Source of the DNA: Desulfurococcales archaeon
Lineage (GTDB): Archaea; Thermoproteota; Thermoprotei_A; Sulfolobales; NBVN01
Assembly: GCA_021158735.1 (NCBI GenBank)
Contig: JAGGUC010000048.1
Location: 1-36,768, forward strand
Reading direction: 5' to 3'
Length of the DNA: 36,768 bases
A program made the position numbers and the translations under genes. A model generated the notes under the pieces. The model saw only the letters and a list, made by a program, of their open reading frames with translations. It ran no database searches and was not told the DNA's origin. Shown here in pieces: positions 2,888-36,768 of the stretch; the stretch's first letter is position 1, and every line of letters begins with the position of its first letter.

Positions 2888-2911
2888 GCTAACATTAAGA
2901 GAACTTACAAG

Positions 2912-2920
2912 TATTAAAAA
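2912..2920 (-). promoter_or_regulatory. TATA-box-like element upstream of the PiT gene
   Basis: The minus strand reads TTTTTAATA about 25-33 nt upstream of the start codon at 2887. This spacing is consistent with a leaderless or short-leader archaeal promoter. Confidence 0.3.
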
Positions 2921-2972
2921 GAATTCCCTAAAACATTATATTTATGATAATATATGGTCAGACATTATGGAG

Positions 2973-3023
2973 ATGATGAGTTTTCGGGGAGAATGACATG
3001 TGATGAAGCGGTTACCCACCTGA
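2973..3023 (+). ncRNA. Candidate C/D box sRNA (2'-O-methylation guide)
   Basis: Ordered box pattern in an intergenic region. C box ATGATGA is at 2973-2979, followed by a 13-nt spacer and a D'-like ATGA at 2993-2996. After a 3-nt loop, C' GTGATGA is at 3000-3006, followed by a 13-nt spacer and D box CTGA at 3020-3023. Total length is about 51 nt. The two spacers are equal, but at 13 nt they are one longer than the canonical 12. No clear terminal stem. Confidence 0.35.
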
Positions 3024-3041
3024 TGTATTTGATAAGGGGCA

Positions 3042-4622: not shown

Positions 4623-5797
4623 TAGTATTCACCCAGTACTTCACGACCAGTTAATAAATGTGTAATACCTAGTGCATTAACTATATTGATAAATGCCTCC
4701 CTACTCAAGTATGTAATGTGGTGTGCCTCATAAAGCGGGTAAGGGTACCCATCACCAGATACGGACTTCAAGATATCAACCACATCCCTAACAACAGACT
4801 CTAGCGTGTTAGTAGCTGAACTACCAATAATGTAAGGTATCTCAACTTTAAACACATGTTCCCCTGTACCCAGTCTCACATAAGTTAATAAGATCCTTAA
4901 TTTGTCATAAAACTCCCTGAGTCCAAGCACTTTAGGCATCTCCTTAATAGGTTTATCCTCCAAGTAAGGCTTTGAAAAACCTGATTCCCTAGTCAGGTAC
5001 TGAAATAACATAATGTCCGTGACCGGGGTCTTACCCTTGAAGAAACGTTTGACGTAGGTCTGCGACCTACTAGTTTTTGAGATAAATAGTACAGGAATAT
5101 TGTTTAAGTATGCATCACTAATTAACCTTCTAATAACCGCTAACTTTTCTATGTACTCGAGAGCTGTGATCATCTGTGACTTACTCTCGTCAATATCATA
5201 AACTACCGGTTCAGTGACCTCCTTAGTAACAATAGGGCAGTTCCTCACAGCATCAATAGATCTTAAAGTCCTAGTTAACCTGGCCTCTATGTTACTGAAG
5301 ACCTCATCTCCGAACTCACGGGACACCCTGGCCAGAATAGTTGAAAGCAGTATATTGTTGAGCGGTGAAGGTGTTATCAGCATAGACCTTAGCGACCCGT
5401 CCATAAGCACGTACTCAACGTCACTCAGCATCGACTGTATAGCTACCTTAACCTCAAGCACTTCACGGTACAGGCCCACTCTCTCAGCTACTTGAGGAGG
5501 GGACAGTACATCAATATCAGCTACAGATAAAGTTACAGCACTCTCATATTTCCCGTTAGCTAGCCCACGAAATAGTACAGCAGCTGCTGCAACCCCATAA
5601 ATAGTAAATCCCTGAAAATCCACCTTAATATTGCTGCCGTCAACACCTGCTACTGACTCGGGCGCTGCGGGGGATGGTTCATAAGAAATCCAGAATCTCC
5701 TGACATCATTAAGGTGCTCACACCGGCTAAAAATTTCTATTTTTCTGATTATCTCATCTTTCTTTCTTGTTGCAGCAGCGATTAACTCAGAGCTCAA
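4622..5797 (-). CDS. nurA: NurA 5'-3' nuclease
   Basis: 391 aa. It has the NurA-type catalytic motif VAGVDGSN near the N-terminus and lies between rad50 and herA, as in thermophilic archaea. Its start overlaps the rad50 stop by 11 nt. Confidence 0.85.
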   Translation of the reverse strand: MSSELIAAATRKKDEIIRKIEIFSRCEHLNDVRRFWISYEPSPAAPESVAGVDGSNIKVDFQGFTIYGVAAAAVLFRGLANGKYESAVTLSVADIDVLSPPQVAERVGLYREVLEVKVAIQSMLSDVEYVLMDGSLRSMLITPSPLNNILLSTILARVSREFGDEVFSNIEARLTRTLRSIDAVRNCPIVTKEVTEPVVYDIDESKSQMITALEYIEKLAVIRRLISDAYLNNIPVLFISKTSRSQTYVKRFFKGKTPVTDIMLFQYLTRESGFSKPYLEDKPIKEMPKVLGLREFYDKLRILLTYVRLGTGEHVFKVEIPYIIGSSATNTLESVVRDVVDILKSVSGDGYPYPLYEAHHITYLSREAFINIVNALGITHLLTGREVLGEY

Positions 5798-8603: not shown

Positions 8604-8610
8604 ACCGAGG

Positions 8611-9861
8611 TCACCTCATGAACTTCTCTAACCCCTTACCCCGTTGCTTAGTTAGATCAGTATATGAAGTAGGTACGAGCTTTAAGGAACCTACTTTATT
8701 AGACCATAGCTCCTTATACTGCAGTAACTTCTCGATCCATGCTTCAATGTCTTCCTCGCTATTACTAGCTAGAATGTCTTTTATCTTAAGTATCACTGCC
8801 GCTGCCTCTCGAGCTACTCTGTTATTGGGGTCCCCACCTATCATAGACGCCACTATGCTTAGAGCGTCTAATTCAACTCCCTCCTCACCACCTTTAGTGG
8901 GGCTCTCCACCACTCTCTCCAACCTGATTCTGACATAAGCTTTCTCACCCACTATTCTTCTGATTTCCTTCACTATGTCATCCTTCACCTTGTATGGGAC
9001 CGTCACCCATACATGAATTATTCCCTTTTTATCTGAAGAGCTTACCTTACTGAGTATGACCTTGAGATCCTCCCTGAACCGGTTGTAATTAGTTTTGAGC
9101 ATTACTTGCGGCCTCACATTCAAGTTTATGGTGTGTACTACTGCCTCACTAGTGCTCAAGTCAACCATGTAGAAACCCTTACCTACTTCTCTCCACGACT
9201 CTATTTCGTCAGCCCTCATAATATCTATGCTACCTGCATAAGCTACCACTGTGCCGCTCTCCAGCTTCCTTGCGATCCTCCTATGCAGATGCCCCATCGC
9301 TACGTAAGCTACTTCATGCGGTAGGTCTGCGAGGTCAAGCCCCTCCTCTATCATGAAGAACTGCTTTACGTTCTGATGAAGCATAAGGACTGTTCTCCTA
9401 CCCTCAACCTTCGTCATTATGTCGTTTAGCTTTCTCCTCAACATGTTCAGGTACTTCATCCTTGGTGGGTGGTGAGACACACCTGCAATATAGTAGTCCC
9501 TTCCCCCGCAGTGAATAACATCTACATCAGGCGTTCTTGAAGTACCCAACAGCCTGAGGTAAGGCACTAGTACCTGAGGAGGGAGGTCGTACTTCTTAGG
9601 CAGGTCATGCTCACCTAAAACTGAGTATACGCGGATCCCGTGCTCATGAGCCCTTCTAAGTACTTCACCAGCAATTTTAATTGCTCTATTGGGTGGACGG
9701 GGCTTGTCGAACATGTCACCCGATATGACGATAGCCTCAACTCCTTCCTTGATTGCTAAATCAACAGCTTCCTCAAAAAGCGAGTATATGTCGATCTCCC
9801 TCTCCTCAATTCCGTACTGCCGGAAGCCTAAGTGAGTATCCGCTAGATGAGCGATCAGCAA
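8611..9861 (-). CDS. mre11: Mre11 nuclease (calcineurin-like phosphoesterase)
   Basis: 416 aa with phosphoesterase motifs in order: HLADTHLG, GDMFD, GEHD, HQN and GHLH. It is the first gene of the operon. Confidence 0.95.
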   Translation of the reverse strand: MLIAHLADTHLGFRQYGIEEREIDIYSLFEEAVDLAIKEGVEAIVISGDMFDKPRPPNRAIKIAGEVLRRAHEHGIRVYSVLGEHDLPKKYDLPPQVLVPYLRLLGTSRTPDVDVIHCGGRDYYIAGVSHHPPRMKYLNMLRRKLNDIMTKVEGRRTVLMLHQNVKQFFMIEEGLDLADLPHEVAYVAMGHLHRRIARKLESGTVVAYAGSIDIMRADEIESWREVGKGFYMVDLSTSEAVVHTINLNVRPQVMLKTNYNRFREDLKVILSKVSSSDKKGIIHVWVTVPYKVKDDIVKEIRRIVGEKAYVRIRLERVVESPTKGGEEGVELDALSIVASMIGGDPNNRVAREAAAVILKIKDILASNSEEDIEAWIEKLLQYKELWSNKVGSLKLVPTSYTDLTKQRGKGLEKFMR

Positions 9862-12412: not shown

Positions 12413-14152
12413 TTACTTTTGTAAAATACTTAAGACCTCATTAACATGCTGTACAGCTACTTCAATATGGTCCTTAATGAAGTTGCACTTGACCATGTTC
12501 TCAACACTGCTCAAGTAGCTTAGCGATAGGTTCAGTGCTTCCACCGCACCACTAATATTGCCCTCCTTGATCATGTCCTTCGCCTGGTCGAGGGCTTCCT
12601 CGGCACTCCCCAGCAGAGCCCTAGCCTCAATACTTAACCCGCATATGTGTAATTTACTTACTTTTAATGTAGTTTCCACCAGCTTCAGTGCCCTATCAGT
12701 GAGGACGTACGCAATTGAGTGCTTCTCCCCTTCAGCTTCCTCGGCCCTGTGAAGCACTCTCTCTGCATGACCTATCACGTACTTGGTTACTGAGTCAAGC
12801 ACGTGCTCTACCCGAGATATTACAGCCATAATTATCTTGAGGTATGGTTTTCCATGACCTGCTTCCTTCCTTAAATCGACAACCTTCTCCTTTAATTCCT
12901 CAACCAAGTCCTTAATTTCCTGTATGGACTCTGATACCCCCTCCTCGTCCCCACTAGCTGCTCTTTCTGCAAGCTGCTTGAGAACATCTATGACCTCTCT
13001 TGACAGGTCAGCTATTTCCTCAATTCCTTCCTTAATGTGGCCCGGTATTTCAGGGTTTGGCGTGACCTTACTCTCAACGTACTCTATGAGGGTTTGAACC
13101 GCCTTAATAACTTTACTTACGTTGTACCCGACCTCAAGTGCTCGGCAGGTTATTCTGTGCCTCAGCGCCGCTTGAATCCGGGTTGCAAACACCATTCTCT
13201 CCAAGTTCCCTAAGTACACTATGAGTCTCATTTTACTAACATTCAGCTTCTCCTCAACCATGCTCTCGAGCTTTTCTAGTTCCTTCGAGAGTTTGTCTGC
13301 GATCGACTCTAGCTTATTAGCTACTTTCACAAGTCCTAAATCTCTCAGCTTCTGAGCATTCTCCCTTAATTCCTCAATGGATCTTTTAGTGGAGTTTACT
13401 AGTGCTACTACTCTGACTTCCGCCTTCTCGACTATTGTAGTAGCTATAGCCTCATTTAATTCTGTACTAACATATCGCAGAAGCTCCCTAACCTCCTCTA
13501 TAGTACTGTTAAAGTATTCTCCATCCCACTCAGCTGTTCCGTTGATGACTTTATCTACATACTTCCTTAATTCTGCTAACTTCTTGCTTATGTTGGCTAG
13601 CACGGACCTGAGCTCATCGGCTAATGTGGCATTAATTACTTCCTTACTCTCAGCTCTTTCAACAGCTGCTTCAAGGGCCCCCGCAGTTGCATTTAATGCA
13701 TTAACCAGTCTCAAACACGTACTAACCTTCACTCTGATCCTTAGTCGCTCCTTCACAGGAAGAGGCATGTACTCCTTAGCAGCCAAACTTATTGCCCTAT
13801 GAACCTTCTTCATTCCCTCAATGAATAATTCCCTAGCAAGCGTCTTATTACCAGCCTCCTCAGCAACTGTTATGTTGCTCAGGAGTTTTTTGGTCTCATT
13901 AATCAGTGCCCACGGCTCAGTGTCTGCAGGTATTCCCCACCTATTAAGCAACCTTTCAGCCAAGACTATCGTGTGATTTAATATTCTGACGTAACTACCG
14001 TTAGCCACTACAGGGGTTGCATTAGACCATTCGTGCTCTGCTGAACTCCAGTCCTCACCTACGTCCTGGGCCATTACCGATGTTGGGACAATCACACCTA
14101 AAGCCACTAACAGGATTAAGGGCAGAGCCACCAGTTTTGAAGCTACGACCAC
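12413..14152 (-). CDS. Secreted, predominantly alpha-helical, sequon-rich protein of unknown function
   Basis: 579 aa. An N-terminal signal-like segment (KLVALPLILLVALGVIVPTSVMA/QD) is followed by heptad-like E/K/L-rich helices. I count 16 N-x-S/T sequons. There is no C-terminal TM helix. GGTGAG SD-like sequence and TATA-like GTTTTTAAT lie upstream. Confidence 0.7.
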   Translation of the reverse strand: MVVASKLVALPLILLVALGVIVPTSVMAQDVGEDWSSAEHEWSNATPVVANGSYVRILNHTIVLAERLLNRWGIPADTEPWALINETKKLLSNITVAEEAGNKTLARELFIEGMKKVHRAISLAAKEYMPLPVKERLRIRVKVSTCLRLVNALNATAGALEAAVERAESKEVINATLADELRSVLANISKKLAELRKYVDKVINGTAEWDGEYFNSTIEEVRELLRYVSTELNEAIATTIVEKAEVRVVALVNSTKRSIEELRENAQKLRDLGLVKVANKLESIADKLSKELEKLESMVEEKLNVSKMRLIVYLGNLERMVFATRIQAALRHRITCRALEVGYNVSKVIKAVQTLIEYVESKVTPNPEIPGHIKEGIEEIADLSREVIDVLKQLAERAASGDEEGVSESIQEIKDLVEELKEKVVDLRKEAGHGKPYLKIIMAVISRVEHVLDSVTKYVIGHAERVLHRAEEAEGEKHSIAYVLTDRALKLVETTLKVSKLHICGLSIEARALLGSAEEALDQAKDMIKEGNISGAVEALNLSLSYLSSVENMVKCNFIKDHIEVAVQHVNEVLSILQK

Positions 14153-21411: not shown

Positions 21412-21861
21412 CTACTTGATCAGCCCTACAGACCTCAGTGCGTCAGCTAACATTATATTCGGGGCTACCTGATATATGAAAACACCTGCCTGAGTAAGTG
21501 CTTGGGCTAGGTTCGTGCCCATATTTGGTGCTAGTACAACCCTCACGTTCTTAGAGATCAGCCATTGAGCTAGTGCAAGTCCAGCACCCTGAGGCACTGA
21601 AGCTGCCGGGTTATCGAGTACGTTTACTGACATTACCTGACCATCCTTAACATCAATTAATGCTATGTACGGCGACCTCGCAAAAACTTGTGAGACCATA
21701 GAGTTCATGCCTTCGGCATTATTTACTGGTACTGCTACTCTTACCTCACCTGCCGGTGGGGGTGTCTGCTGAGGCTGTTGAGGAACTCCCCACCCTCTTT
21801 GCCTTCCCCAACCTCTTCTACCCCAACCTCTACCCCTCCCTCGCCCGTACCCGTAGCTCAT
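21412..21861 (-). CDS. NifX/NifB-C-terminal-like (dinitrogenase FeMo-cofactor-binding family) protein with an N-terminal RG/W-rich low-complexity tail
   Basis: 149 aa. The first about 38 aa are MSYGYGRGRGRGWGRRGWGRQRGWGVPQQPQQTPPPAG. The rest matches the family pattern (FARSPYIALIDV ... GAGLALAQWLISKNVRVVLAPNMGTNLAQALTQAGVFIY). AGGTGA Shine-Dalgarno lies 5-6 nt upstream of the ATG, and the gene is 22 nt downstream of the preceding gene. Confidence 0.8.
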   Translation of the reverse strand: MSYGYGRGRGRGWGRRGWGRQRGWGVPQQPQQTPPPAGEVRVAVPVNNAEGMNSMVSQVFARSPYIALIDVKDGQVMSVNVLDNPAASVPQGAGLALAQWLISKNVRVVLAPNMGTNLAQALTQAGVFIYQVAPNIMLADALRSVGLIK

Positions 21862-21883
21862 TAACTCACCTTCCTTGACTGAG

Positions 21884-22222
21884 TCAAAACCCCGAGCTAC
21901 TTCTTGATGTTTTTCCTGTTAGCTCCTTAAGCTCCTTAATCCTCTCCTCAACACTCTTTAATTCTTCTTGAAGATCTCTGAGGTCCTCCTCAAGCTGTTT
22001 TTTGTATTCCTCCAACATCTCTAGTTCCTCCTCAGGCGTCGTCGGTGGGGGCGGGTATGGTGGATAGGGCGGTAGTGGCATATATGTTGGGTACTGCTGC
22101 GGTGTCTGAGTCTGCTGAGGTTGCTGGGGTGGCGGAGAGTACGGGTACATGTACGGGTAAGGTGGAGGCATGTACCGCATTAATCTTCGCCAATACCTGA
22201 ACCAGTACATCTTTCTCACCAT
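21884..22222 (-). CDS. Small low-complexity protein: M/Y/W/R-rich head, P/Q/Y-rich middle, acidic coiled-coil tail (DUF5320-like architecture)
   Basis: 112 aa: MVRKMYWFRYWRRLMRYMPPPYPYMYPYSPPPQQPQQTQTPQQYPTYMPLPPYPPYPPPPTTPEEELEMLEEYKKQLEEDLRDLQEELKSVEERIKELKEL. It is co-oriented with and immediately upstream of the NifX-like gene. Confidence 0.7.
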   Translation of the reverse strand: MVRKMYWFRYWRRLMRYMPPPYPYMYPYSPPPQQPQQTQTPQQYPTYMPLPPYPPYPPPPTTPEEELEMLEEYKKQLEEDLRDLQEELKSVEERIKELKELTGKTSRSSSGF

Positions 22223-22311
22223 GTAATTTTTGGACTTTGCACATTAATAACACTATATGAAGTACCCTGCTTTGGTTTGTTTAAGGAGGTAGTTTTTCAA
22301 GCTTTACTGAA

Positions 22312-22319
22312 TTTATTAA
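22312..22319 (+). promoter_or_regulatory. TATA-box-like element for the DUF134 gene
   Basis: TTTATTAA is centred about 27 nt upstream of the ATG at 22343. This implies a leaderless transcript and favours 22343 over the TTG at 22277 used by the ORF track. Confidence 0.3.
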
Positions 22320-22342
22320 TGTGGAAGGTAGAGGTGTTGTGT

Positions 22343-22684
22343 ATGAGTCGTGAAGGTCCGCCTTGGAGATGGTGCTGGAGGCGTGAAGGGAGAGGGAGAA
22401 GACCTAAGCCTAGGTTCATAAGGTTTCAGACGACGCAGGTAGTTTTCGCACCGCTAGACGAGTCAGGGCGTCCAGTAGAAGGTGAGCCCATATATATGAA
22501 CCCCGATGAACTTGAGGCACTTCGACTGGTTTACTACTTAGGGTTAACGCAGGAGGAAGCAGCTGAGAAAATGGGTGTCTCCAGAGGGACTCTTTGGAGA
22601 GCGCTGAGTAGTGGGAGGAAAAAAATTATTTCAGCCTTAATTGAGAGGAGACCGCTGATACTTATGTCTGGCCCGCCTCTGTAG
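22343..22684 (+). CDS. DUF134 / UPF0251-family predicted DNA-binding protein (sigma-70 region-4-like HTH)
   Basis: Family pattern GRGRRPKPRFIRF..., then MNPDELEALRLVYYLGLTQEEAAEKMGVSRGTLWRALSSGRKKIISAL. The ORF track starts at TTG 22277. I prefer ATG 22343 (MSREGPPWRW...) because of the TATA spacing. Confidence 0.8.
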   Translation: MSREGPPWRWCWRREGRGRRPKPRFIRFQTTQVVFAPLDESGRPVEGEPIYMNPDELEALRLVYYLGLTQEEAAEKMGVSRGTLWRALSSGRKKIISALIERRPLILMSGPPL

Positions 22685-22901
22685 CTGGTGTTGCTACCTT
22701 AACTGCTGCTTCTGCATATTTCCTCCACATATCAAGCATTACCTTGTACATCTCAATATAGTACATCATTGCTATAAATCCCATCCACATACTTGACCAT
22801 GCATACATTGCCGCGAATGGGTCAGGCAGGTACGGCGGCATCCCCCAGTAGTAGGGGTTATATGGGTATGCCATAACTGCCCACCTCGCCTGCGTCACCA
22901 T
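22662..22901 (-). CDS. Small aromatic/Met-rich protein of unknown function, translationally coupled to the upstream W-rich ORF
   Basis: 79 aa from ATG 22901: MVTQARWAVMAYPYNPYYWGMPPYLPDPFAAMYAWSSMWMGFIAMMYYIEMYKVMLDMWRKYAEAAVKVATPATEAGQT. Its ATG overlaps the upstream TGA stop (ATGGTGA). The longer track version (to 22985) would overlap the upstream ORF by 91 nt. Confidence 0.5.
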   Translation of the reverse strand: MVTQARWAVMAYPYNPYYWGMPPYLPDPFAAMYAWSSMWMGFIAMMYYIEMYKVMLDMWRKYAEAAVKVATPATEAGQT

Positions 22902-23164
22902 GTTGGTGGGTAAGGGTATCCGTACATGTACGGTGTAGGGTACCAGTAGTGTGAGTAATAAGGCATCATCCAAGGCCAGTACCACCTAAGCCCCCATGGA
23001 GCACCGTAGAGCCACCAGCACGCACCTCTACCAAACAACCAGCCGGGCCTCTGCCAAGGCGGTAGGTAGCTGAAGGGACCTCTACCAGGCCATGGGCCTG
23101 ACCAACCGCCTCTACCTCTGCCTCCTCTCCACCCCCAACCTAGTCCGCTGAACCACCATGCCAT
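22895..23164 (-). CDS. Small W/G/R/P/Y-rich low-complexity protein of unknown function
   Basis: 89 aa: MAWWFSGLGWGWRGGRGRGGWSGPWPGRGPFSYLPPWQRPGWLFGRGACWWLYGAPWGLRWYWPWMMPYYSHYWYPTPYMYGYPYPPTW. I count 16 Trp in 89 residues. The GRGRGG head resembles the tail of the NifX-like protein. GGTGG lies just upstream of the ATG, and a TATA-like element lies about 37 nt upstream. No competing long ORF occurs on the other strand. Confidence 0.55.
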   Translation of the reverse strand: MAWWFSGLGWGWRGGRGRGGWSGPWPGRGPFSYLPPWQRPGWLFGRGACWWLYGAPWGLRWYWPWMMPYYSHYWYPTPYMYGYPYPPTW

Positions 23165-23373: not shown

Positions 23374-23652
23374 CTACTCCTTAACATATACTATAGGGTA
23401 TATCCCGCATCCTAGTGGCCTGTACTGATATATCTTGCAGGTGCCCTCTATCAGGTTGTAGAAGTAGCAGTAACCGTCGACATTCCTTAATCTCCAATAG
23501 CCTTCACTCCAAACGGTGAAATCCTGTACCTGATAACCCAGCTCCTTAATTACTGTGATGTCTTCTGGCAGGAGGATCATTTCAGTTTCCATATAGCACA
23601 GACTACACTTAAGGCATTCAGACCTCATGAAAGCCCCTGGCCCAGCAGTCAC
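23374..23652 (-). CDS. YkgJ-family (CxxCxxCC-type) putative Zn/Fe-chelating Cys-cluster protein
   Basis: 92 aa. The N-terminal Cys motif is ECLKCSLCY, and downstream Cys residues occur in GYCYFY...GTCKIYQYRPLGC. This matches the layout of the UPF0153/YkgJ family. The gene lies 20 nt downstream of the DtxR-type gene. Confidence 0.65.
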   Translation of the reverse strand: MTAGPGAFMRSECLKCSLCYMETEMILLPEDITVIKELGYQVQDFTVWSEGYWRLRNVDGYCYFYNLIEGTCKIYQYRPLGCGIYPIVYVKE

Positions 23653-23672
23653 TTCAGCAGCCCTCGCCCCAA

Positions 23673-24140
23673 TTACTCAGCTATGTATTGCTTAAGTACT
23701 ACGTTAAACCTACACGTACATGTAGGCCTCCCCATACCGCCAGCTACAATGAGTTCTCCGTGGGGACACCTAGACGGCCTTCCCAGCAGACACCATAACT
23801 TATCAACTATGTGCTTGGGTATGCTCAACTCTATGTCCCTTGCTACATGACATGCCTCCTCTACGCTTAGCCCCAACCTAGTCAGGGCTGACTCAATAAC
23901 TCCGTGCCTCCAAATAATCTCTAAGCACAAATCGATGCCCTCCTTTGTCAGCCTAATGCCCCTGCCTACCCTCTCAATCAGCCCCCATTTAACCAGCTTC
24001 TTAATCATGAGTGATGCTGTTGATTTTGAAACTCCGAGTGCTTTAGCTACGTCAACTACTCTAGCAGTGCCTTTAAAGGTGCAGTGCTCATATACGGTTA
24101 TTAAGTAGTCGATATCACGTGTACTCAGTAAGCCGACCAT
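23673..24140 (-). CDS. DtxR/MntR/SirR-family metal-dependent transcriptional repressor
   Basis: 155 aa. An N-terminal wHTH (VVDVAKALGVSKSTASLMIKKLVKWGLIER) is followed by the metal-binding/dimerisation helix pattern (RHGVIESALT...EEACHVARDIELSIP). Its start overlaps the permease gene by 16 nt. Confidence 0.85.
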   Translation of the reverse strand: MVGLLSTRDIDYLITVYEHCTFKGTARVVDVAKALGVSKSTASLMIKKLVKWGLIERVGRGIRLTKEGIDLCLEIIWRHGVIESALTRLGLSVEEACHVARDIELSIPKHIVDKLWCLLGRPSRCPHGELIVAGGMGRPTCTCRFNVVLKQYIAE

Positions 24141-24961
24141 TTCCTAACACCTAGTAGTGCATATATTACTGTTGCTGAAGCAAAAATACCTACACCTGCC
24201 GATGGAGGTAACTCGAGGGCTAGTGCTAGAACGTACCCTGACGCCATGATCAGAAGGGATGAAGCATAGGCTACTGCATGAATTTTTCTGACAGCAGCCC
24301 TAACAGCGATCAGGCCAGGAGCGGTGAGGACTACGTGGGTAAGTAACACCCCTAGTGACATAGCAAGTGATGTAGCGGTAGCTGCCGTTAATGAGTATAG
24401 GAGGTACCTGTAGTACCTAACTCTAAGCCCCATCGAGTACGCACCTTCGGGGTCGAAGAAAACGTACTTAAACTCGCCCCAAAACATGTGTATTAACGGT
24501 ATAACTATTATTGCAGTAGCTGCCAGCCTAGCAACATCACCTGCTGTAGCGAGGGCTGATGTTCCGAAGACATAGCTCATAGCCTTTGAAACACCTAAAG
24601 GGGACATGAAGCTCAGGTAGTAAGTCAGTATCACAGTTGTTGTGACTGATAAGCACACTGAGGTAGCTATAGCTGAATCTTCCGGAAGCCCTCTGTTGAT
24701 GGCCTCAGCAGTCAATACCGAAATCAAGATCGATACAAGCGCGGCAGTGACTACTGGAGGGACAGGGAGGTGTGCGACATCAGTTAGGAAGACACCTACT
24801 AAGCCTCCGGCAAGAACCGAGTGAAGTAGTGTGATGCCGAACGTGATGGATCTAGCAACAACCAGTGCCGGACTTACTGAACCAACTAGGGCACTACCCA
24901 ATAGCGCAGTAGCCGCGCTCATTATCAGTAGGTAGCTACTTCCTGAGGGCATGATCTTCAC
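24125..24961 (-). CDS. ABC-3 family metal (Mn/Zn/Fe) transporter permease
   Basis: 278 aa with about 8 TM helices. Its position between an ABC ATPase and a DtxR-type regulator, downstream of a ZnuA/TroA-like binding protein, supports the call. Confidence 0.85.
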   Translation of the reverse strand: MKIMPSGSSYLLIMSAATALLGSALVGSVSPALVVARSITFGITLLHSVLAGGLVGVFLTDVAHLPVPPVVTAALVSILISVLTAEAINRGLPEDSAIATSVCLSVTTTVILTYYLSFMSPLGVSKAMSYVFGTSALATAGDVARLAATAIIVIPLIHMFWGEFKYVFFDPEGAYSMGLRVRYYRYLLYSLTAATATSLAMSLGVLLTHVVLTAPGLIAVRAAVRKIHAVAYASSLLIMASGYVLALALELPPSAGVGIFASATVIYALLGVRKWSAY

Positions 24962-25727
24962 CGAGAATTATGAGACCTTTCACTTCAGTAAGCCCGGGGT
25001 ATGCAGCCTTAAGTATGTCCAGCCTCAGCACCTGGCTCGGCTTACCTATAGCGAAAACCTTCTTATTAATAAGAATGACCGTCGGCTCGTATGCCATGCA
25101 GGGCGAGAGTTCATGGGCCGACATCAAAACATCTACACCGAGTGTCCTGTGGATCCTGTACAGTAACTCAACAACCTCGCACTTTACTTTAAAGTCAAGC
25201 ATTGAGTACGGCTCGTCGAGAATCAGTAACTTCGGTCTTCTTATTAAGGCCCTAGCAAGCAACACACGTTGTCTCTCACCACCGCTCAATTCACTAAATA
25301 ACTTGTCCTCATAATCGCTTAGCTCAACTAAACTCAAATATTCTTTTACCTTCTTCTTTACGGTGCCTGAAATAACTCTAGGGGGAGGTAGCTTTGACAG
25401 TAGCCCCATAGCAACTACTTCCTCGACAGTCACCGGCGCTAGAGCGTCAACATTAATTACTTGCGGTACATAACCAACTACTTCAGCAATAGCTCCCATA
25501 TCACGCCATGGCACTAAGCCGTAGATGCTGGCACGCCCCTTTACAGGCTTTAAGAGTCCTATCAATGCCCTAATAAGTGTTGTCTTACCCGCACCGTTGG
25601 GGCCCATTAAAATCGCAAAGAATGGTGACTTGAGGGCGAATGAAGCATCATGTACTACTGGCTCCCTGCCATATGACAGGGTAACGTCCTTAACTTCAAC
25701 GTGTTTATCAGGTAGAGCGCTAACCAC
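24936..25727 (-). CDS. ABC transporter ATP-binding protein (ZnuC/MntA-type)
   Basis: 263 aa. Motifs found: Walker A GPNGAGKTT, signature LSGGERQR and Walker B LLILDEP. Confidence 0.9.
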   Translation of the reverse strand: MVSALPDKHVEVKDVTLSYGREPVVHDASFALKSPFFAILMGPNGAGKTTLIRALIGLLKPVKGRASIYGLVPWRDMGAIAEVVGYVPQVINVDALAPVTVEEVVAMGLLSKLPPPRVISGTVKKKVKEYLSLVELSDYEDKLFSELSGGERQRVLLARALIRRPKLLILDEPYSMLDFKVKCEVVELLYRIHRTLGVDVLMSAHELSPCMAYEPTVILINKKVFAIGKPSQVLRLDILKAAYPGLTEVKGLIILGEDHALRK

Positions 25728-26829
25728 TGCTGACCACCCTTGATTCGATGTACCTTCTTTGTAGAGTGACTACGACCGCCAGTACAATAACAAGGACGGC
25801 CTCAGATATAGCTAATGTAGTAGCTAAGTTATTGATACCAAATACCTCCTCCTCGCCCCACTCCCTCTGGTGGCTCATGCCGATAGAGTTCGCTTTAATG
25901 TCGCTGAGCTGCGCAGCTAGTACAGCAGGAATTAGGTTTGGAGTACTTGATAGTGTGCTAGCAGGTACTATTATATATGGTATCCTATTTAACTTAAGTA
26001 ACTCAAGAACTTTAGGATATCTTACCGCCATAGTATCCGTGATTAGAACAGCATCATATGCACCCCTATCATACCCGCTAACTAAAGTCTTCAGCGCACC
26101 CTCACTTAGTTCTGTCCCGGGTTCATTAAGCACTATCCCTATGCACTTAAGTCCTAAGTCATGAGCTACGTACTGAAGTATAGGTGTGAAGAGAATCACC
26201 CTCATACCGTACGGTACTAACCCGCGCACGGACTGATTCTCCATAGTAATTAATTTCTTAAACTCCTGAAGCCTGCTGTAGTAGTAGCTCCCGTGATTAG
26301 GGTCCACCTCAGCAAGAACTTCAGTAACCGCGGCCGCAGCCGCTACTAGGCCTGAGTAACTCATTAGGTACCCGTGAGGATTTACCCTACCAGTCCCTGG
26401 GTTCACCATTAATTTAAGTCCATGCCTTAAGTAATCCCTATAATCTACTATACTAGCCCTCACAACACCATCTCTCACCAGCTCACTAATCCTAGCCTCT
26501 ATGATGAGATGTGATGGACCTGTCATTAACACTACAGTAGCATTACTCAGCGAATTCACTAAAAAGGAGGTTGACGGCTCAAAATGATGAGGGTCAACAC
26601 CAGCAGGTACAAGAGAGTAAACAACCACCTCATCACCACCTATGAAAGATGCGACATACTTCAGTGACGCTGAGGTAACAGCAACAACCACCCTCCCACT
26701 ATCCAAACCAGCACTACCCCCACTTACTGCAGAAACGGTGAAGGTAGTACAGTGTACGAAGCAACCTAGAGCAACTAAAATAAACAGGAGGAGTACTGCG
26801 CTAACCACACGGCGCCTGACTTCATACAT
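25720..26829 (-). CDS. Metal-binding solute-binding protein (ZnuA/TroA cluster A-I) with a C-terminal TM anchor
   Basis: 369 aa. It has an N-terminal signal/anchor, the metal-ligand contexts VDPHHFEP and NPHGYL, and a C-terminal hydrophobic helix (LAISEAVLVIVLAVVVTL) followed by QRR. There is no His-rich loop. Confidence 0.85.
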   Translation of the reverse strand: MYEVRRRVVSAVLLLFILVALGCFVHCTTFTVSAVSGGSAGLDSGRVVVAVTSASLKYVASFIGGDEVVVYSLVPAGVDPHHFEPSTSFLVNSLSNATVVLMTGPSHLIIEARISELVRDGVVRASIVDYRDYLRHGLKLMVNPGTGRVNPHGYLMSYSGLVAAAAAVTEVLAEVDPNHGSYYYSRLQEFKKLITMENQSVRGLVPYGMRVILFTPILQYVAHDLGLKCIGIVLNEPGTELSEGALKTLVSGYDRGAYDAVLITDTMAVRYPKVLELLKLNRIPYIIVPASTLSSTPNLIPAVLAAQLSDIKANSIGMSHQREWGEEEVFGINNLATTLAISEAVLVIVLAVVVTLQRRYIESRVVSSG

Positions 26830-27531: not shown

Positions 27532-28527
27532 GTGCATGAAGGTCTTGGCAGGGCCGTAATAGCTGTAGATGTGGGGGCCACTAACTTAAGAGTAGGGATT
27601 TTTGACTTAAGTGCCTCTTTACTGAAGGTGGAGGTTACTAGGACACCCAGGTCGGGAGGACATGACGCGGTAGCTGACTCAATAAAGTATATTGCTGACA
27701 ATATGCTCAGATCTCTAGGAATTAGGCATGTAGTAGGAGTTGGTGTAGGTACTATAGGTCCTCTTAACATTAGAGAAGGAGTCGTCGTCAATACCCCAAA
27801 CAATCCGATCAGGACTTTCAGACTCAAGGCACCTCTTGAGGAGTTTTTTGATGTGCCTGCATACGTAGTGAATGACTGTGTAGCTGCTGTTTGGGGCGAG
27901 TTTAATGCTGGCAGCTTCAGAGAAGCCAAGAATATGGTCTATATTACGTTAAGCACTGGTATTGGCGCAGGCGTGATTGTAGATGGGCACCTCCTGCTAG
28001 GGAAGGACGGGAACGCACATGAAGTCGGGCACATAACAGTAAATTATAAGTATGGTGTCCGCTGTGGGTGTGGAGGTATAGGGCACTGGGAGGCTATTGC
28101 CTCAGGAGCTAATATCCCTAAATTTGCTGAGGAGGTATCCAAGAACTGGCATGGCAGTAAAACAGCAGCGTATTTTTTGGCATGTAAAGGCGGCTTAACT
28201 CCAGAAGACTTATTTAAGCATTGGAGGTTAGGTGACGAGTTTGCTACCTACGTCATCAATGAGCTTGTTGAGGTTAATGCTGCGGGCTTAGGGAGCGTTA
28301 TTAATGTGTATGACCCGGAAGTCATTACGCTCGGCGGATCTATAGCCATTAATAACACTGACTTCATAGAAAAAGTCGTGCAGAACGTCAGTAAGTACGC
28401 AATTAATAAAATACCTAAAATATCGTTAACCTCACTAGGTGAGAAAGCCGTGCTTGTAGGTGCTGCATACCTCATCCTAAACACACCTGAAGAGCTACCT
28501 AAAATTCAAGGTAGTACACACCAATAA
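27532..28527 (+). CDS. ROK-family sugar kinase (glucokinase/hexokinase-type)
   Basis: 331 aa. The ATP-binding N-terminus is IAVDVGATNLRVG, and the ROK zinc motif is GHITVNYKYGVRCGCGGIGHWEAIASG. The start is GTG. Confidence 0.85.
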   Translation: MHEGLGRAVIAVDVGATNLRVGIFDLSASLLKVEVTRTPRSGGHDAVADSIKYIADNMLRSLGIRHVVGVGVGTIGPLNIREGVVVNTPNNPIRTFRLKAPLEEFFDVPAYVVNDCVAAVWGEFNAGSFREAKNMVYITLSTGIGAGVIVDGHLLLGKDGNAHEVGHITVNYKYGVRCGCGGIGHWEAIASGANIPKFAEEVSKNWHGSKTAAYFLACKGGLTPEDLFKHWRLGDEFATYVINELVEVNAAGLGSVINVYDPEVITLGGSIAINNTDFIEKVVQNVSKYAINKIPKISLTSLGEKAVLVGAAYLILNTPEELPKIQGSTHQ

Positions 28528-33177: not shown

Positions 33178-34461
33178 ATGATCCAGTTAAGGTATCGTAA
33201 CGTGGAAATAAGAGGTATTAGTCTATGTAATCTGGCAGACTACATACCTCTAGTCTTTACTACATCATACATCAGCTACACGATCCTTACAACGTTCTTG
33301 AAGGAGATCTTCACCTACTCATGCCCGAGTATGTACCTGTATATTTACGGTTCAGCGATCTCGACGTTACTCTTAGCCGTATCAATAATTCTTGGTGCAT
33401 CGGTCTCGGGTCTCTACCTAGACCACCTATGGCGGACTGGAAGAGGGTTCAGAATTCTGATCATACTCCTGCTGTCATCAAGTATATTGTTTACAACTTA
33501 CGTAGTGACTACGAGGGGATTAAGTCATGAAATGTTTATCTCCACTAACGCTATTTTTTGGTTTATTACAGGGTTCTTACTAGGTAACTTGCTAACGAAC
33601 ACTAGCTTATATATCAGGTATATCTATGACGTAATGAAGAGAGGCACGACTGTAGGGGTAGGAGTAGGTCTAGGAGCTTTACTTCATTTGGGGCTTGCTG
33701 CTTCAGGACTAAGTGTGGCTTTACTAATAACCACCTGCTTAATTCTCTCAACACTTAGTGCAACTTCACTACTAGCTCATGAAAAGCTGCGTTCGGGGAA
33801 GTACTCAGAAAGGGTAGTTAATGAGGGTGTCTCACTTTACGATATGAGGGTGCTCATGCTCTTAATTCCTATTTACATTTTCTCACTCATGCATGGATTA
33901 ATCATAAGAAGTCACATACTACCGCATGCTAGAGTATTATTAGCTGATGTAGTGCTGAACGAACTAGTAATGAACTTACCCATGCTCATGTCTGTTCTTG
34001 CAGGAATGGTTATGGATTCCTTCGGCAGGAAGGTTGTAGGTATTGCTGGACTTATCGTGCTGGGTATTACATCGGTTTTTATGCTAACGATCTATACGCT
34101 GATAATACCACCTATTGAGATAAGTATACTTACGCTAATTTTCAGCAGGCTCTCGGCAGCCCTCATAACTCCCTATATAATGATCTTGTCAGCCGAAATA
34201 GCACCTAAGAAATTTGCTGGTAAATTCCTGAGCATATGTTATGGAACAACGGCCGCTGGGGTATTAACAGGTGTAGTAACACCTGATATACTCAAGTCCT
34301 TCTACCTACCCACTGCGGTTGGGGCCATGATCCTCTTTACCTCAGTCTACATACTCTACACACTCCCAGAGACCCTGCCTCCCGAGTACCTTAGGCGTAA
34401 GGAGGTTATTAGTTATGTTAAGAAGGCTATGAAGCTCAAAGGTAAGTCCAGATCTTCTTAG
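33178..34461 (+). CDS. Polytopic membrane transporter, MFS-like
   Basis: 427 aa with about 11-12 TM helices in two bundles separated by a charged loop (HEKLRSGKYSERVVNEG). An MFS-like D-x-x-G-R-K motif (MDSFGRKVVG) occurs in the second half. Confidence 0.6.
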   Translation: MIQLRYRNVEIRGISLCNLADYIPLVFTTSYISYTILTTFLKEIFTYSCPSMYLYIYGSAISTLLLAVSIILGASVSGLYLDHLWRTGRGFRILIILLLSSSILFTTYVVTTRGLSHEMFISTNAIFWFITGFLLGNLLTNTSLYIRYIYDVMKRGTTVGVGVGLGALLHLGLAASGLSVALLITTCLILSTLSATSLLAHEKLRSGKYSERVVNEGVSLYDMRVLMLLIPIYIFSLMHGLIIRSHILPHARVLLADVVLNELVMNLPMLMSVLAGMVMDSFGRKVVGIAGLIVLGITSVFMLTIYTLIIPPIEISILTLIFSRLSAALITPYIMILSAEIAPKKFAGKFLSICYGTTAAGVLTGVVTPDILKSFYLPTAVGAMILFTSVYILYTLPETLPPEYLRRKEVISYVKKAMKLKGKSRSS

Positions 34462-35197
34462 CTATTTCAAATATTAGCTTGCTGTATGGATGTCCGGGGA
34501 GGTCTCTCACCATCATTTTATCTCCATTATATAGGACTACCTCAGGGTAGTAAGGTATTACCTCAAGTAGTTCAGCACCGCCGAGTTTCCTGGCTACTGA
34601 CTCACCTAGCCTGAGCGCCTCCTCATGAGACTTAGACGGTACCTTATTAACGATCAGCATAACCTTAATTTCTACTAGACTGTAGATCTCCCTGAGGAGC
34701 ACTTCCGCACCTCGCACCTCTATCTTATCAGGGAGGGTGACCAATATAGTAGCATCGCTTGCTACAATAGCGTTAAGTGCTGAGTACTGAGGTCCTGGAG
34801 GCGTGTCTATCAGTATAATATCTACACTGTTGTGGCTGAACTTCTTGATCAGTCCAATTAACTTCTTTAGAGCATTCATTTCCCAGTGCCTATCCTTTAC
34901 AAGCGCCTCTTTAATAGCATCTATTGAAGGATTAGCAAATACTACGAGTAATTTACCCTTAACACCATCATCTATACGTACTATAACGTCATCATCTTCT
35001 GCTTCGCCGTTTAAGTAATCATTTATGAAGTGCTTGACTTTCGGTTCATTAAAGATGTAGTACTGAGTGGGGGCCCTCAAGTCGCAGTCCAGGAGAACTA
35101 CCTTATAATTAAGTGACGCAAGCGCGTAAGCTAAGTTGGCGGCTAGCACTGACTTTCCGCTCCCTCCCCTCTGGGAGTGGATTGCCACCGCCTTCAC
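34436..35197 (-). CDS. ParA/MinD-superfamily P-loop ATPase (deviant Walker A with Arg at the signature-lysine position)
   Basis: 253 aa. Deviant Walker A is SQRGGSGKSV, Walker A' is VVLLDCDL and Walker B is IILIDTPPG. It lies 5 nt downstream of a wHTH gene. Confidence 0.85.
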   Translation of the reverse strand: MKAVAIHSQRGGSGKSVLAANLAYALASLNYKVVLLDCDLRAPTQYYIFNEPKVKHFINDYLNGEAEDDDVIVRIDDGVKGKLLVVFANPSIDAIKEALVKDRHWEMNALKKLIGLIKKFSHNSVDIILIDTPPGPQYSALNAIVASDATILVTLPDKIEVRGAEVLLREIYSLVEIKVMLIVNKVPSKSHEEALRLGESVARKLGGAELLEVIPYYPEVVLYNGDKMMVRDLPGHPYSKLIFEIAKKIWTYL

Positions 35198-35202
35198 TTT
35201 TC

Positions 35203-35604
35203 CTACTCACCCTCGTAGTAGCTCTCAAATTGAGGAATAATGAAGTATACCTTCCTACCTTTCCTCCTCTTAATTACGTACCCTAAAGTTGTGAGTTGAT
35301 TTAAGTAGGCTGACTCTACAGCCCTGGCCCTGCCTGTGTACTTCGCAACATCCTCTGACGTAGCCTCACCACCTAGCTTTGCTAAAGCGATCAGGGTTTT
35401 TCTTAAGTGATCTGGGACTGACAATAATGTAACCACATCTATTATTCCTGTTCTCAGAGCGTCCTCGACATCGGCAACGCTTCTAAGCGTTTGCGGAACT
35501 CTTTGAACTAGTTTCTCTAACAATTCTATAATCTTGTCTAACTTTTTATTGACATCATTTAATAGTGATGTAGCATCAGCACTTGTATTTTTACTATCTC
35601 TCAA
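35203..35604 (-). CDS. Small coiled-coil plus winged-HTH DNA-binding protein, partner of the ParA/MinD-like ATPase
   Basis: 133 aa. An N-terminal helix (LLNDVNKKLDKIIELLEKLVQRV) is followed by a C-terminal wHTH (KTLIALAKLGGEATSEDVAKYTGRARAVESAYLNQLTTLGYVIKRRKGRKVYF). Confidence 0.65.
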   Translation of the reverse strand: MRDSKNTSADATSLLNDVNKKLDKIIELLEKLVQRVPQTLRSVADVEDALRTGIIDVVTLLSVPDHLRKTLIALAKLGGEATSEDVAKYTGRARAVESAYLNQLTTLGYVIKRRKGRKVYFIIPQFESYYEGE

Positions 35605-35732
35605 TTTTAAACACCTATTAATCTTTAACTTAAGGCTTTTAAATTAAGTAGGTTGTCAGGTATCCTAATTTTCCTAAAACTCCAGTAATAAGGGGAAAAC
35701 TCTATTTCTAGCAACACGTAAGTATATTTACG

Positions 35733-36768
35733 GTGCCGTTCTTGAGGGTTGTTGTACTTACTGGCGGGTTCGCCACAAGACTCAGACCACTAACATTAAC
35801 AAAGCCTAAATCTCTTCTTCCAGTACTGGGTAAGCCCTTGCTGGACTGGATCCTTGAAGGCTTAGCTAAGTCAGGACTTAAGGAAGTCATACTTTCGGTT
35901 AGGTACCTTGCCAGCATGATCAAGAGGAGATACGGGGATGGCTCAAGAGTTGGCTGCTTTATCAAGTACGCTGAGGAGGTCAAACCCTTAGGTGATGCAG
36001 GTCCTATACCACTGATCGACAGAGACGTGGGACTGGACTCAACCTTCCTTGTAGTTTATGGGGATGTTTTTAGTAATATTGACTATAAGGACGTCATAGA
36101 GTATCATAAAAAGAGTGGTGGTCTAGCTACTCTGGTTTTAACTAAAGTTGATAACCCCTATAGGTATGGAGTAGCTGTAGTAGATGACGACGGTAAAATT
36201 ACTGACTTCATAGAAAAGCCCCCGAAAAGCCATGCTATATCAAACCTAGTGAATGCTGGGATCTACGTATTTGAACCTGAGGTACTAAAGTACTTTCCTG
36301 AAAAGACACCGTCTAAATTAGCTAAGGACGTCATACCTAAGCTGGTTAGTGATGGCGTCATTTACGGCTACATACATAATGGGCTGTGGTCCGACATAGG
36401 TATTCCGGCAGACTACCTGAGGGCTAACTTTGAAGCTCTAACACACTATTACCCAAAGGGATATATGAGTAAGTCAGCCGATATTAACGGAGCCGAGATC
36501 CTAGACCCTGTATATATTGGTGAAGACGTCATCATTAACTCAGAGTCCATCATAGGGCCCTTCACTATAATTAATAAGGGATGTAAGATAGGAAAACAAA
36601 CCAGAATACTTAATTCAATACTCTTAAGCAACGCCATAGTGGAGGGTTCATCACTGATCATGAAGAGCATAATAGGTGAGAGGTGCTATATAGGGAAGTG
36701 GGTCAGGGTAAGTGAAAACTGTGTAATCGGTGATGAGGTTGTTGTGAGGGACTGCGTATATATAGCAA
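35733..36768 (+). CDS. Partial sugar-1-phosphate nucleotidylyltransferase (N-terminal NTP-transferase domain plus left-handed beta-helix); continues past the window end
   Basis: Open frame from GTG 35733 to the window edge, absent from the ORF track. Translation: VPFLRVVVLTGGFATRLRPLTLTKPKSLLPVLGKPLLDWILEGL...YGDVFSNIDY...VNAGIYVFEP... This is followed by hexapeptide-repeat-like IIGERCYIGKWVRVSENCVIGDEVVV. The G-G-x-x-T-R-L-x-P-L-T signature is diagnostic. Confidence 0.85.
   Translation, partial: MPFLRVVVLTGGFATRLRPLTLTKPKSLLPVLGKPLLDWILEGLAKSGLKEVILSVRYLASMIKRRYGDGSRVGCFIKYAEEVKPLGDAGPIPLIDRDVGLDSTFLVVYGDVFSNIDYKDVIEYHKKSGGLATLVLTKVDNPYRYGVAVVDDDGKITDFIEKPPKSHAISNLVNAGIYVFEPEVLKYFPEKTPSKLAKDVIPKLVSDGVIYGYIHNGLWSDIGIPADYLRANFEALTHYYPKGYMSKSADINGAEILDPVYIGEDVIINSESIIGPFTIINKGCKIGKQTRILNSILLSNAIVEGSSLIMKSIIGERCYIGKWVRVSENCVIGDEVVVRDCVYIA

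Follow-up and report, generated by a model that had tools for sequence, protein, structure and literature searches.

Little is understood of how iron and sulfide are stored, moved and rendered harmless in strict anaerobes. To our knowledge, IssA is the only thioferrate-binding protein that has been described, and we know of no work that accounts for how its one cysteine goes with thousands of iron atoms, or that names its partners. Here, we describe a locus of five small genes (designated A to E) in a 36.8 kb stretch of archaeal DNA of ~45% GC (the window, by which the whole stretch is meant), the proteins of which have exact or near-exact matches in metagenome-assembled genomes (MAGs) labelled Desulfurococcales archaeon. 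By analogy with IssA we propose, with a probability of about one half, that the locus is a conserved archaeal module handling anionic iron-sulfur species, built around the IssA-like protein A, partners that would correspond to a split DUF5320 protein, and a DUF134 regulator.

IssA (SipA, PF2025) of Pyrococcus furiosus is a thioferrate iron-sulfur storage protein, characterized in 2017 by Vaccaro et al. (PMC5524996). It is composed of an IPR003731 domain modelled on MTH1175, a proline-rich region and a disordered, cationic Trp/Gly/Arg (W/G/R) tail carrying its only cysteine; it binds anionic thioferrate chains, and the particles measure 20-300 nm (PMC5524996). MTH1175 was itself called an IssA-type protein, and long-tailed relatives keep the repeat pattern and the abundance of W, G and R but not the sequence (PMC5524996). 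The IssA clade, whose IPR003731 domains stand nearer by phylogeny to IssA/MTH1175 than to NifX, NafY or NifB, was delimited by a pI of 9 or more, a Cys count below five and a Gly share of no less than 20% over the last 40 residues (PMC5524996, Supplementary Fig. 7). In Palaeococcus, the most strongly sulfur-induced genes include those of IssA/SipA, of a FeMo-co-binding protein encoded beside it and of two CobQ-type Fe-S ATPases (PMC6981617). Another described system with a NifX-like protein is the ORP complex of Desulfovibrio vulgaris (Orp3/4/5/8/9), in which Orp3 and Orp4 are MinD proteins with two [4Fe-4S] motifs, and Orp8, NifX-like and of one domain, holds a Mo-Cu-S cluster non-covalently (PMC6345978).

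On DUF5320, DUF134/UPF0251 and COG1433, the literature search returned almost nothing functional; no publication on the function of DUF5320 and no functional study of DUF134 were found. An earlier account of the locus, made from its letters alone (the sequence-only reading), had stated that families of this kind have no assigned function. For COG1433 this cannot stand: the link to IssA had been missed, a characterized COG1433/IPR003731 protein in which a Pro-rich linker leads to the W/G/R tail (PMC5524996).

Gene A and its likeness to IssA

Gene A (21412-21861, minus strand) encodes a protein of 149 amino acids. It had been taken for NifX-like in the sequence-only reading, and a profile search bore this out: Nitro_FeMo-Co (PF02579) was matched with 62.1 bits, above the Pfam cutoff of 26.3, residues 53-144 aligning to profile positions 2-91 of 94. 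The closest entry in the PDB is MTH1175 (1eo1, E=4e-14), and the relatives found there are MTH1175, TM1290, TM1816, PH0822 and ORP (2wfb, E=3e-4). Nine Thermococcales-type IssA loci were obtained from metagenomes by back-translation of the cloning-primer peptide MKIAIPTNGGG. In a pairwise comparison, the domain of A was 37% identical over 108 aa to a Thermococcales IssA-type protein (E=7e-16).

The PF02579 domain (residues 39-149; 21412-21747, minus strand) is preceded by a W/G/R tail (residues 1-25) and a P/Q linker (residues 26-38; together 21748-21861, minus strand). The first 38-40 residues contain 28% Gly, 7 Arg and 3 Trp and lead into the linker, and the last 40 residues contain 8% Gly. 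The tail also gave a faint match to DUF5320, below the cutoff (15.4 bits, profile positions 36-66). A contains neither Cys nor His and has a pI of 10.9 (10.89). In pI and Cys content A lies within the bounds set for the IssA clade, whereas its C-terminal Gly content of 8% lies below the bound, and the protein qualifies in this respect only if the tail-bearing N-terminal end is counted (28%). In sum of parts, A as well as IssA has an MTH1175-type IPR003731/PF02579 domain joined through a Pro-rich linker to a cationic tail of W, G and R, and both are proteins of high pI, A free of Cys and IssA almost so. As judged from its sequence, A appears to be a Cys-free NifX/IPR003731 protein of the MTH1175/IssA type, with the architecture of IssA and the tail moved to the N-terminus.

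The surroundings of A differ from those of IssA. Here, the conserved Cys-bearing W/G/R motif is found on a separate protein, D; the module adds the coiled-coil protein B and the helical protein E, neither of which is present at the IssA loci examined; and the host is a crenarchaeon of Desulfurococcales type, outside the Thermococcales. In other respects the loci look alike: those of Thermococcales IssA include another NifX-like gene, the product of which has a GMGRG tail; DUF134 lies 3-4 kb from the IssA-type gene in two of the nine, and FeoB is nearby in one. At one IssA locus (L095), a 75-residue ORF (2513-2740) is situated between IssA and the second NifX-like gene (2796-3287, (GMGRG)n tail). 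Its product has an RG-rich head, MPRGMGRGYGRR, and a strongly hydrophobic stretch and matches no Pfam family; it may be anchored in the membrane and act as an RG-rich IssA partner.

Genes D and B as parts of a split DUF5320-type protein

Gene D (22895-23164, minus strand) encodes 89 amino acids, 18% of them Trp, compared with an average of 0.9% in the large ORFs of the window; G (19%), P (16%) and Y (12%) are likewise abundant. Of the other minus-strand proteins, B contains 19% P and 11% Y, and E 14% M and 13% Y, so that the extreme composition claimed for them was reproduced by calculation. All low-complexity strings quoted for them were also found, but as a description of the proteins low complexity falls short: residues 1-52 of D form a conserved motif, and E is mostly one helix.

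D has no match in Pfam or NCBIfam. A search of 5.8 billion proteins recovered at least 341 homologous protein clusters, with hosts in Thermoproteota, thermophilic Nitrososphaeria, Bathyarchaeia, Methanomethylicota, Korarchaeota, Hadarchaeota and others, and in a genome scan at least 206 species-representative genomes encoded a relative. An alignment of 35 homologues has 16 invariant columns within residues 24-48 (motif GPWPGRGPFSxLPPWxRPGWLxGRGxCWW), and the single cysteine of D, C48, is invariant. By this alignment, residues 1-52 (23009-23164, minus strand), comprising the W/G/R segment and the conserved motif GPWPGRGPFSYLPPWQRPGWLFGRGACWW, are not low-complexity filler; only the aromatic/Pro tail of 37 residues (residues 53-89; 22895-23008, minus strand), which ends in Trp, is a segment of composition only. 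D contains no acidic residue and has a pI of 9.9. AlphaFold2 (AF2), run on the D monomer with the 35-sequence alignment, gave no confident fold (predicted local distance difference test score, pLDDT, 49.5), and the family profile found just weak coiled-coil matches among PDB sequences. Conservation of a protein for which no fold is predicted suggests that D folds only upon a partner or ligand.

Two types of tail occur in the D family. The first, to which D belongs, is aromatic, with 42-58% Y/W/F and at most 6% charged residues; the second consists of a linker and a coiled coil. Relatives with the coiled coil pass the DUF5320 cutoff (27.4-31.9 bits, profile positions 17-99). Of the 20 listed D-type proteins with aromatic tails, 17 have Trp as the last residue and 3 have Tyr, -WW being a common ending, and Thermococcales IssA-type proteins likewise end in -GWW; a Trp kept at the C-terminus may act as a functional anchor.

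Gene B (21884-22222, minus strand, 112 aa) encodes a W/R/Y head with a P/Y/Q linker (22037-22222, minus strand), followed by a coiled coil of about five heptads (residues 63-100; 21884-22036, minus strand). Contrary to its earlier assignment, B does not reach DUF5320 (PF17253) on its own: it scored 22.2 bits against a Pfam cutoff of 27, and the match covered only the coiled coil (profile positions 62-98). The 45 non-redundant B-type relatives share the consensus TPEEELxMLExYKxxLEEDLxxLQEELKSVEERIKELK. The G/R-rich N-terminal part and the C-terminal coiled coil of DUF5320 proteins match D and B, respectively, and both parts are found on one chain elsewhere (P0045, P0051, P0088, P0089, P0094, L019, L048, L061 and others). 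Here the two parts are on separate genes, and neither D nor B alone passes the Pfam cutoff; D retains the N-terminal motif but gains an aromatic tail, and B retains the coiled coil. On these alignments, D is the N-terminal half and B the C-terminal coiled-coil half of a DUF5320-type protein, which is single-chain in Bathyarchaeia and split here. The view that the module was expanded in this genome by an extra W-rich pair must consequently be abandoned, since D is widespread as counted above, is one half of a split protein rather than an addition, and is followed by an E-like gene at 26 of 68 loci.

Neighbourhood and fusions across D-type loci

For 68 non-redundant D-type genes, neighbours up to 5 kb away were counted. 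A B-type gene was found at 44/68 loci, DUF134 at 41/68, a NifX-like gene at 33/68, MinD/CbiA ATPases with ferredoxin inserts (Orp3/4-like) at 31/68 and an E-like gene at 26/68, while DtxR and FeoB were each present at 9/68. By a rough estimate, a gene present once per genome would fall within such a 10-kb span by chance in well under 1% of cases. Adjacency to DtxR or Feo is seen in several unrelated lineages and in varied gene orders (Bathyarchaeia L010, Hodarchaeaceae L080, Desulfurococcaceae L084/L085 and others). NifX-like neighbours with an N-terminal RG/W tail like that of A occur at several unrelated loci (L001, L008, L024, L047, L052, L067 and others).

In other lineages, the components are fused. 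In Nitrososphaeria (L016, L025, L030, L037, L042, L053 and L062), one chain carries a B-type head and coiled coil, the segment GYGYGWGRGRG, a P/Q linker and a NifX domain, in effect B fused to A. The reverse order, a NifX domain followed by GMGRG repeats and a coiled coil, is found at L034, L058, L060, L081 and L086; the L058 protein scores 54 bits on DUF5320. These fusions provide the strongest evidence that B and A would work together, and suggest that the RG/W segment belongs to the function of the NifX protein. The sequence-only reading had regarded the locus as one functional module, and synteny across the 68 loci, together with the fusion of B to A-type proteins, supports this. The expected conservation of the neighbourhood in related genomes was also found, as all five genes recur, identically arranged, in related Desulfurococcales MAGs, at the four loci L012, L014, L001 and L003.

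Gene E, a small helical protein

Gene E (22662-22901, minus strand) is 79 aa long as annotated. An ATG at 22874 (MAYPY...), with GAGGTG 7 nt upstream, agrees with the starts of homologues, and the true E protein probably begins there and has 70 aa. E matches no Pfam or NCBIfam family. A word-indexed search with E alone returned four close clusters, as if E were a lineage-specific orphan; phmmer on the ORFs of D-type loci overturned this and placed E-like ORFs of 60-90 residues directly downstream of the D-type genes at the 26 loci counted above, the usual gene order being D, E, B. The conserved core consists of a Y/P/W head followed by (F/P)DPxxxM...W...YYxExYKxMxDxWRKxxE. A profile search recovered 22 clusters and an exhaustive search of 1.84 billion representatives 14, none of them named and none with a Pfam domain.

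AF2 predicts one long helix spanning residues 19-61 (pLDDT 77, core 85-92), and hydrophobic residues at a spacing of 3-4, as read from the sequence, mark the C-terminal half. E is therefore best regarded as an unnamed conserved family with one long predicted helix. Two other descriptions were rejected. The maximum Kyte-Doolittle value (19-residue window), 0.5-1.2 across all sequences of the real protein, is too low for a membrane span. D and E are not one frameshifted gene either, as the end of D is constant in relatives and elsewhere the E-like gene starts past the D stop codon without overlap.

Gene C and the divergent promoter

Gene C (22343-22684, plus strand, 113 aa) was assigned to DUF134/UPF0251 from the outset, and it is a clear member of this family (PF02001, COG1342), scoring 78.9 bits against a cutoff of 27; its sigma-70 region-4-like helix-turn-helix (HTH) matches Sigma70_r4_2 with 37.8 bits. 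On the NCBIfam equivalog PRK04217 it stays below the cutoff (99.7 versus 115 bits). What had been overlooked is a W/RG segment at the N-terminus of C, PPWRWCWRREGRGRRPKPR, which is conserved across loci. C begins with an arm of the form PPWRWCW...GRGRRPKPR (22343-22400), and the DUF134 proteins at D-type loci share PPWRW(C/R/H)W...GRGR(R/P)PKPR. This PPWRW(C/R/H)W segment ahead of a basic GRGRxPKPR arm is extra to canonical DUF134 proteins. Since the arm is conserved, the W/RG theme is common to A, C and D. The GRGR(R/P)PKPR part presumably resembles the core of an AT-hook. The canonical DUF134 start, MVRPRKCRRV, which L081 shows, is without the Trp segment; the DUF134 protein of L081 also has a zinc-ribbon-like CxxC...CxxC at its C-terminus and an RG tail.

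B and C diverge from a common region (22223-22342). A DNA repeat search revealed inverted exact copies of the 11-mer TTATTAATGTG in it, at 22240-22250 (minus strand) and 22313-22323 (plus strand), with their centres ~26 nt ahead of the start codons of B and C, respectively. The window contains 6 matches to this 11-mer at no more than one mismatch, compared with 0.92 expected. Both arms are kept in L001, L003 and L014; the stretch of L012 that was read covers the B-side arm only, and this arm is kept. We infer that the pair may represent twin TATA elements, that is promoters for leaderless transcripts, an operator, or both. A third exact copy is located at 28298-28308 (plus strand), inside a ROK-family gene (27532-28527).

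Gene organization and purifying selection

All five ORFs named in the sequence-only reading were found at the coordinates it gave. B and A are separated by 22 nt; the Shine-Dalgarno motif said to join them is present, as a Shine-Dalgarno-like AGGTGA read from the sequence at 21866-21871 (minus strand), 12 nt past the stop codon of B and with a 4-nt spacer to the ATG of A. D and E overlap by 7 nt, and the convergent genes C and E by 23 nt. Sequence modules recur between the genes as had been noticed, PQQPQQT being exact in A and B, and PYMY occurring in B and D. At the DNA level, these recurrences amount to just 15-30 nt with 76-88% identity, which rules out recent duplication; the sharing reflects common composition or old ancestry.

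The ratio of non-synonymous to synonymous substitution rates (dN/dS) was calculated by the Nei-Gojobori method against the related loci L012, L014, L001 and L003, with the DtxR neighbour as control; in the more distant pairs, synonymous sites are near saturation. Values were 0.06-0.20 for A, 0.02 for B (against L012), 0.05-0.13 for C, 0.05-0.10 for D and 0.10-0.22 for E, compared with 0.05-0.12 for DtxR. All five genes are thus real and under purifying selection (0.02-0.22), and D and B are better conserved than the NifX-like gene A. The D orthologue (82% protein identity) is missing or truncated in public gene calls (L001 5828-6097, L003/L004 5828-6085). Gene callers missed it because a spurious 5' extension of the E ORF by 30-40 residues overlaps D, an annotation artefact that likely hides the D family in many genomes.

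Proposed function and alternatives

In the mechanism that we propose, the Cys-free NifX domain of A would nucleate or hold an Fe-S polymer or cluster without covalent bonds, and the Arg/Gly/Trp segments of A and D would neutralize and wrap the Fe-S species, as proposed for the IssA tail. The invariant Cys of D may cap or ligate these species. Multivalency would come from the coiled coil of B, with which the E helix probably pairs, while the Tyr/Trp/Pro-rich segments of B, D and E would adhere to each other and to the Arg-rich segments by aromatic and cation-pi contacts, so that a large particle would form instead of a defined small complex. C would control B-A and itself from the symmetric divergent promoter, and the adjacency to DtxR/Znu here, and to DtxR/Feo elsewhere, would couple expression to metal status. 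The sequence-only reading had considered metal or cofactor handling and co-assembly through the tails. This was the right direction, and the evidence fits it; the mechanism itself is drawn from the analogy with IssA.

Several points weigh against this interpretation. Every mechanistic step rests on analogy. The tail of A is N-terminal, whereas that of IssA is C-terminal; it is short (~25 + 13 residues versus 70) and lacks the single Cys of IssA. D could not be aligned significantly with IssA tails (hhalign probability 3%; nothing by BLASTP), and IssA tails searched against Pfam gave no match to DUF5320. Therefore, the link between D and IssA is one of composition and context, and no homology is claimed. 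D-type genes adjoin Orp3/4-like ATPases (31/68) more often than iron-uptake genes, and the 36-kb window contains no Orp3/4-like Fer4-MinD ATPase. The role of IssA itself, storage or detoxification, is unsettled (PMC8219758). Moreover, a survey that covered genomes of the methanogen and alkanotroph types recorded no IssA homologue among its few members of the Crenarchaeota (four genomes), Bathyarchaeota and Verstraetearchaeota (PMC8351635).

A bolder version of the IssA-like interpretation, which we put forward only tentatively and consider improbable as it stands, is that A, B, D and E form a multi-component matrix for an intracellular thioferrate-like iron-sulfide particle. Such a condensate-like or biomineral scaffold would have its parts on separate polypeptides: a nucleating NifX domain, cationic W/G/R wraps, a Cys cap, a multimerizing coiled coil and aromatic/proline stickers. 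If true, hyperthermophiles would use the Arg-aromatic grammar of eukaryotic phase-separating proteins, and DUF5320, the D-motif and E families and DUF134 would be the missing storage partners and regulator of IssA-type proteins across anaerobic archaea and, through canonical DUF5320, perhaps in bacteria too.

The locus could also be the archaeal equivalent of the Desulfovibrio ORP complex and serve as an accessory of such machinery, a reading that overlaps with the IssA-like one and does not exclude it, but that we regard as unlikely. D, B and possibly E would then be partners or adaptors of Orp3/Orp4-like MinD-ferredoxin ATPases; their coiled coil and their disordered, Arg-rich N-termini would act like the partners of other ParA/MinD ATPases, and A would be the equivalent of the orange protein with a non-covalent heterometal-sulfide cluster. 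ORP genes likewise form an anaerobe-specific cluster, with Cys-poor single-domain NifX-like proteins and ferredoxin-insert MinD ATPases; these two gene types surround D-type genes at 31-33 of the 68 loci, the MinD/CbiA-Fer4 ATPase pairs within 5 kb of 31 of them and often in the same strand run as the NifX-like gene. The presence of both Orp3/4 MinD ATPases and the NifX-like Orp8 in the ORP complex (PMC6345978) agrees with this, as do the lack of Cys in A and its match to ORP 2wfb at E=3e-4. However, A is nearer to IssA-type proteins and MTH1175 than to ORP, and the model of MrpORP (NF041136), a protein in which an Mrp/NBP35 domain is joined to a NifX-like one, matched its NifX domain alone, with 34.4 bits against a cutoff of 450. 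Neither the window nor the fetched loci of close relatives contain a Fer4-MinD ATPase, and no MrpORP gene is present in the window; the sole MinD/ParA-like gene there (34436-35197) lacks the ferredoxin insert and is 11 kb away. The regulator is DUF134 here and sigma-54 with an enhancer-binding protein there, and in the literature found, the five proteins of the ORP complex include no DUF5320-like component.

It is less probable again that the module binds nucleic acids, the RG/RGG-like and RGRP (AT-hook-like) segments of A, C and D contacting DNA or RNA and the small proteins serving as co-regulators, chromatin proteins or RNA chaperones alongside the DUF134 factor. Such a function would suit C, an HTH protein whose conserved GRGR(R/P)PKPR arm presumably resembles the AT-hook core. 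DUF134 and DUF5320 proteins of one Hadesarchaeon have been flagged with an RG-rich candidate G-quadruplex-binding motif (PMC7565180). It does not explain why RG segments are attached or adjacent to a metal-cluster-binding NifX domain in many lineages, nor why the neighbours are enriched for Fe-S ATPases and genes of iron uptake and regulation instead of nucleic-acid enzymes; and the D motif, with its invariant Cys, is much more conserved than usual RGG boxes. Finally, it is hardly credible that D and E, and B perhaps as well, are not functional genes but spurious ORFs or the remains of decayed ones in a stretch of odd composition: D and E lack Pfam and NCBIfam matches, D has no predicted fold and was skipped by gene callers in L001, L003 and L004, but the false 5' extension of E accounts for the skipping, and the reading is refuted by conservation, with dN/dS of 0.05-0.22 at near-saturated synonymous sites, at least 341 D clusters across several archaeal phyla, 16 invariant residues, an E-like gene at a fixed position after D at 26/68 loci and 45 non-redundant B-type sequences.

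Returning to the IssA-like interpretation, what appears to be new is an IssA-like system in which the tail is permuted and the DUF5320 partners are split, with a small helical protein, E, that had no name before. This locus and the 68 related loci suggest that IssA-type proteins belong to a wider modular system, in which the W/G/R tail, the Cys-bearing motif, the coiled coil and the aromatic segments can be fused or split into small genes, and with which a DUF134 regulator travels. IssA-like biology would thereby extend to the Thermoproteota, DUF5320, DUF134 and the unnamed E family would gain a functional context, and an IssA-like module, broadly conserved in anaerobic thermophilic archaea, has gone essentially unstudied. 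The selection data also indicate that in the proteins of hyperthermophiles strong purifying selection can act on an extreme Trp/Tyr/Pro/Arg/Gly composition.

Genomic context of the module

Upstream of the module, on the same strand, lies a set of metal genes (23374-26829, minus strand) encoding a CxxCxxCC protein, a DtxR/MntR-type repressor, an ABC-3 permease, an ABC ATPase and a ZnuA-type binding protein, in an order that is the same in L001, L003, L004, L012 and L014. The CxxCxxCC gene (PF03692, putatively Zn/Fe-chelating; 23374-23652, minus strand) lies between the DtxR/MntR repressor and D, on the strand of the ZnuABC-type transporter, an order that only close relatives retain. It is separated from D by 209 nt, with a TTTATAA box ~37 nt ahead of the ATG of D. 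D and E may be co-transcribed with the metal-uptake operon or lie just downstream of it.

Rfam and tRNA scans of the window returned nothing, and a scan for bacterial-type promoters and terminators was uninformative, the host being archaeal. A link to defence systems was discarded, PADLOC giving just weak generic coiled-coil/HTH matches (LmuB, 14.3 bits; mad1, 22.2 bits). A 579-residue ORF (12413-14152, minus strand) has no Pfam match at E <= 1e-5. The MinD/ParA-type P-loop ATPase gene mentioned above, on the minus strand, was recognized by the AAA_31, ParA and CbiA models and is followed by two small ORFs (35203-35604 and 35708-35983) without a Pfam match. At the other end of the window, PhoU-like and PHO4 phosphate-transporter genes (1008-2887) precede a complete DNA end-resection operon of the HerA-NurA-Rad50-Mre11 type (3042-9861, minus strand), which is ordinary for a crenarchaeon.

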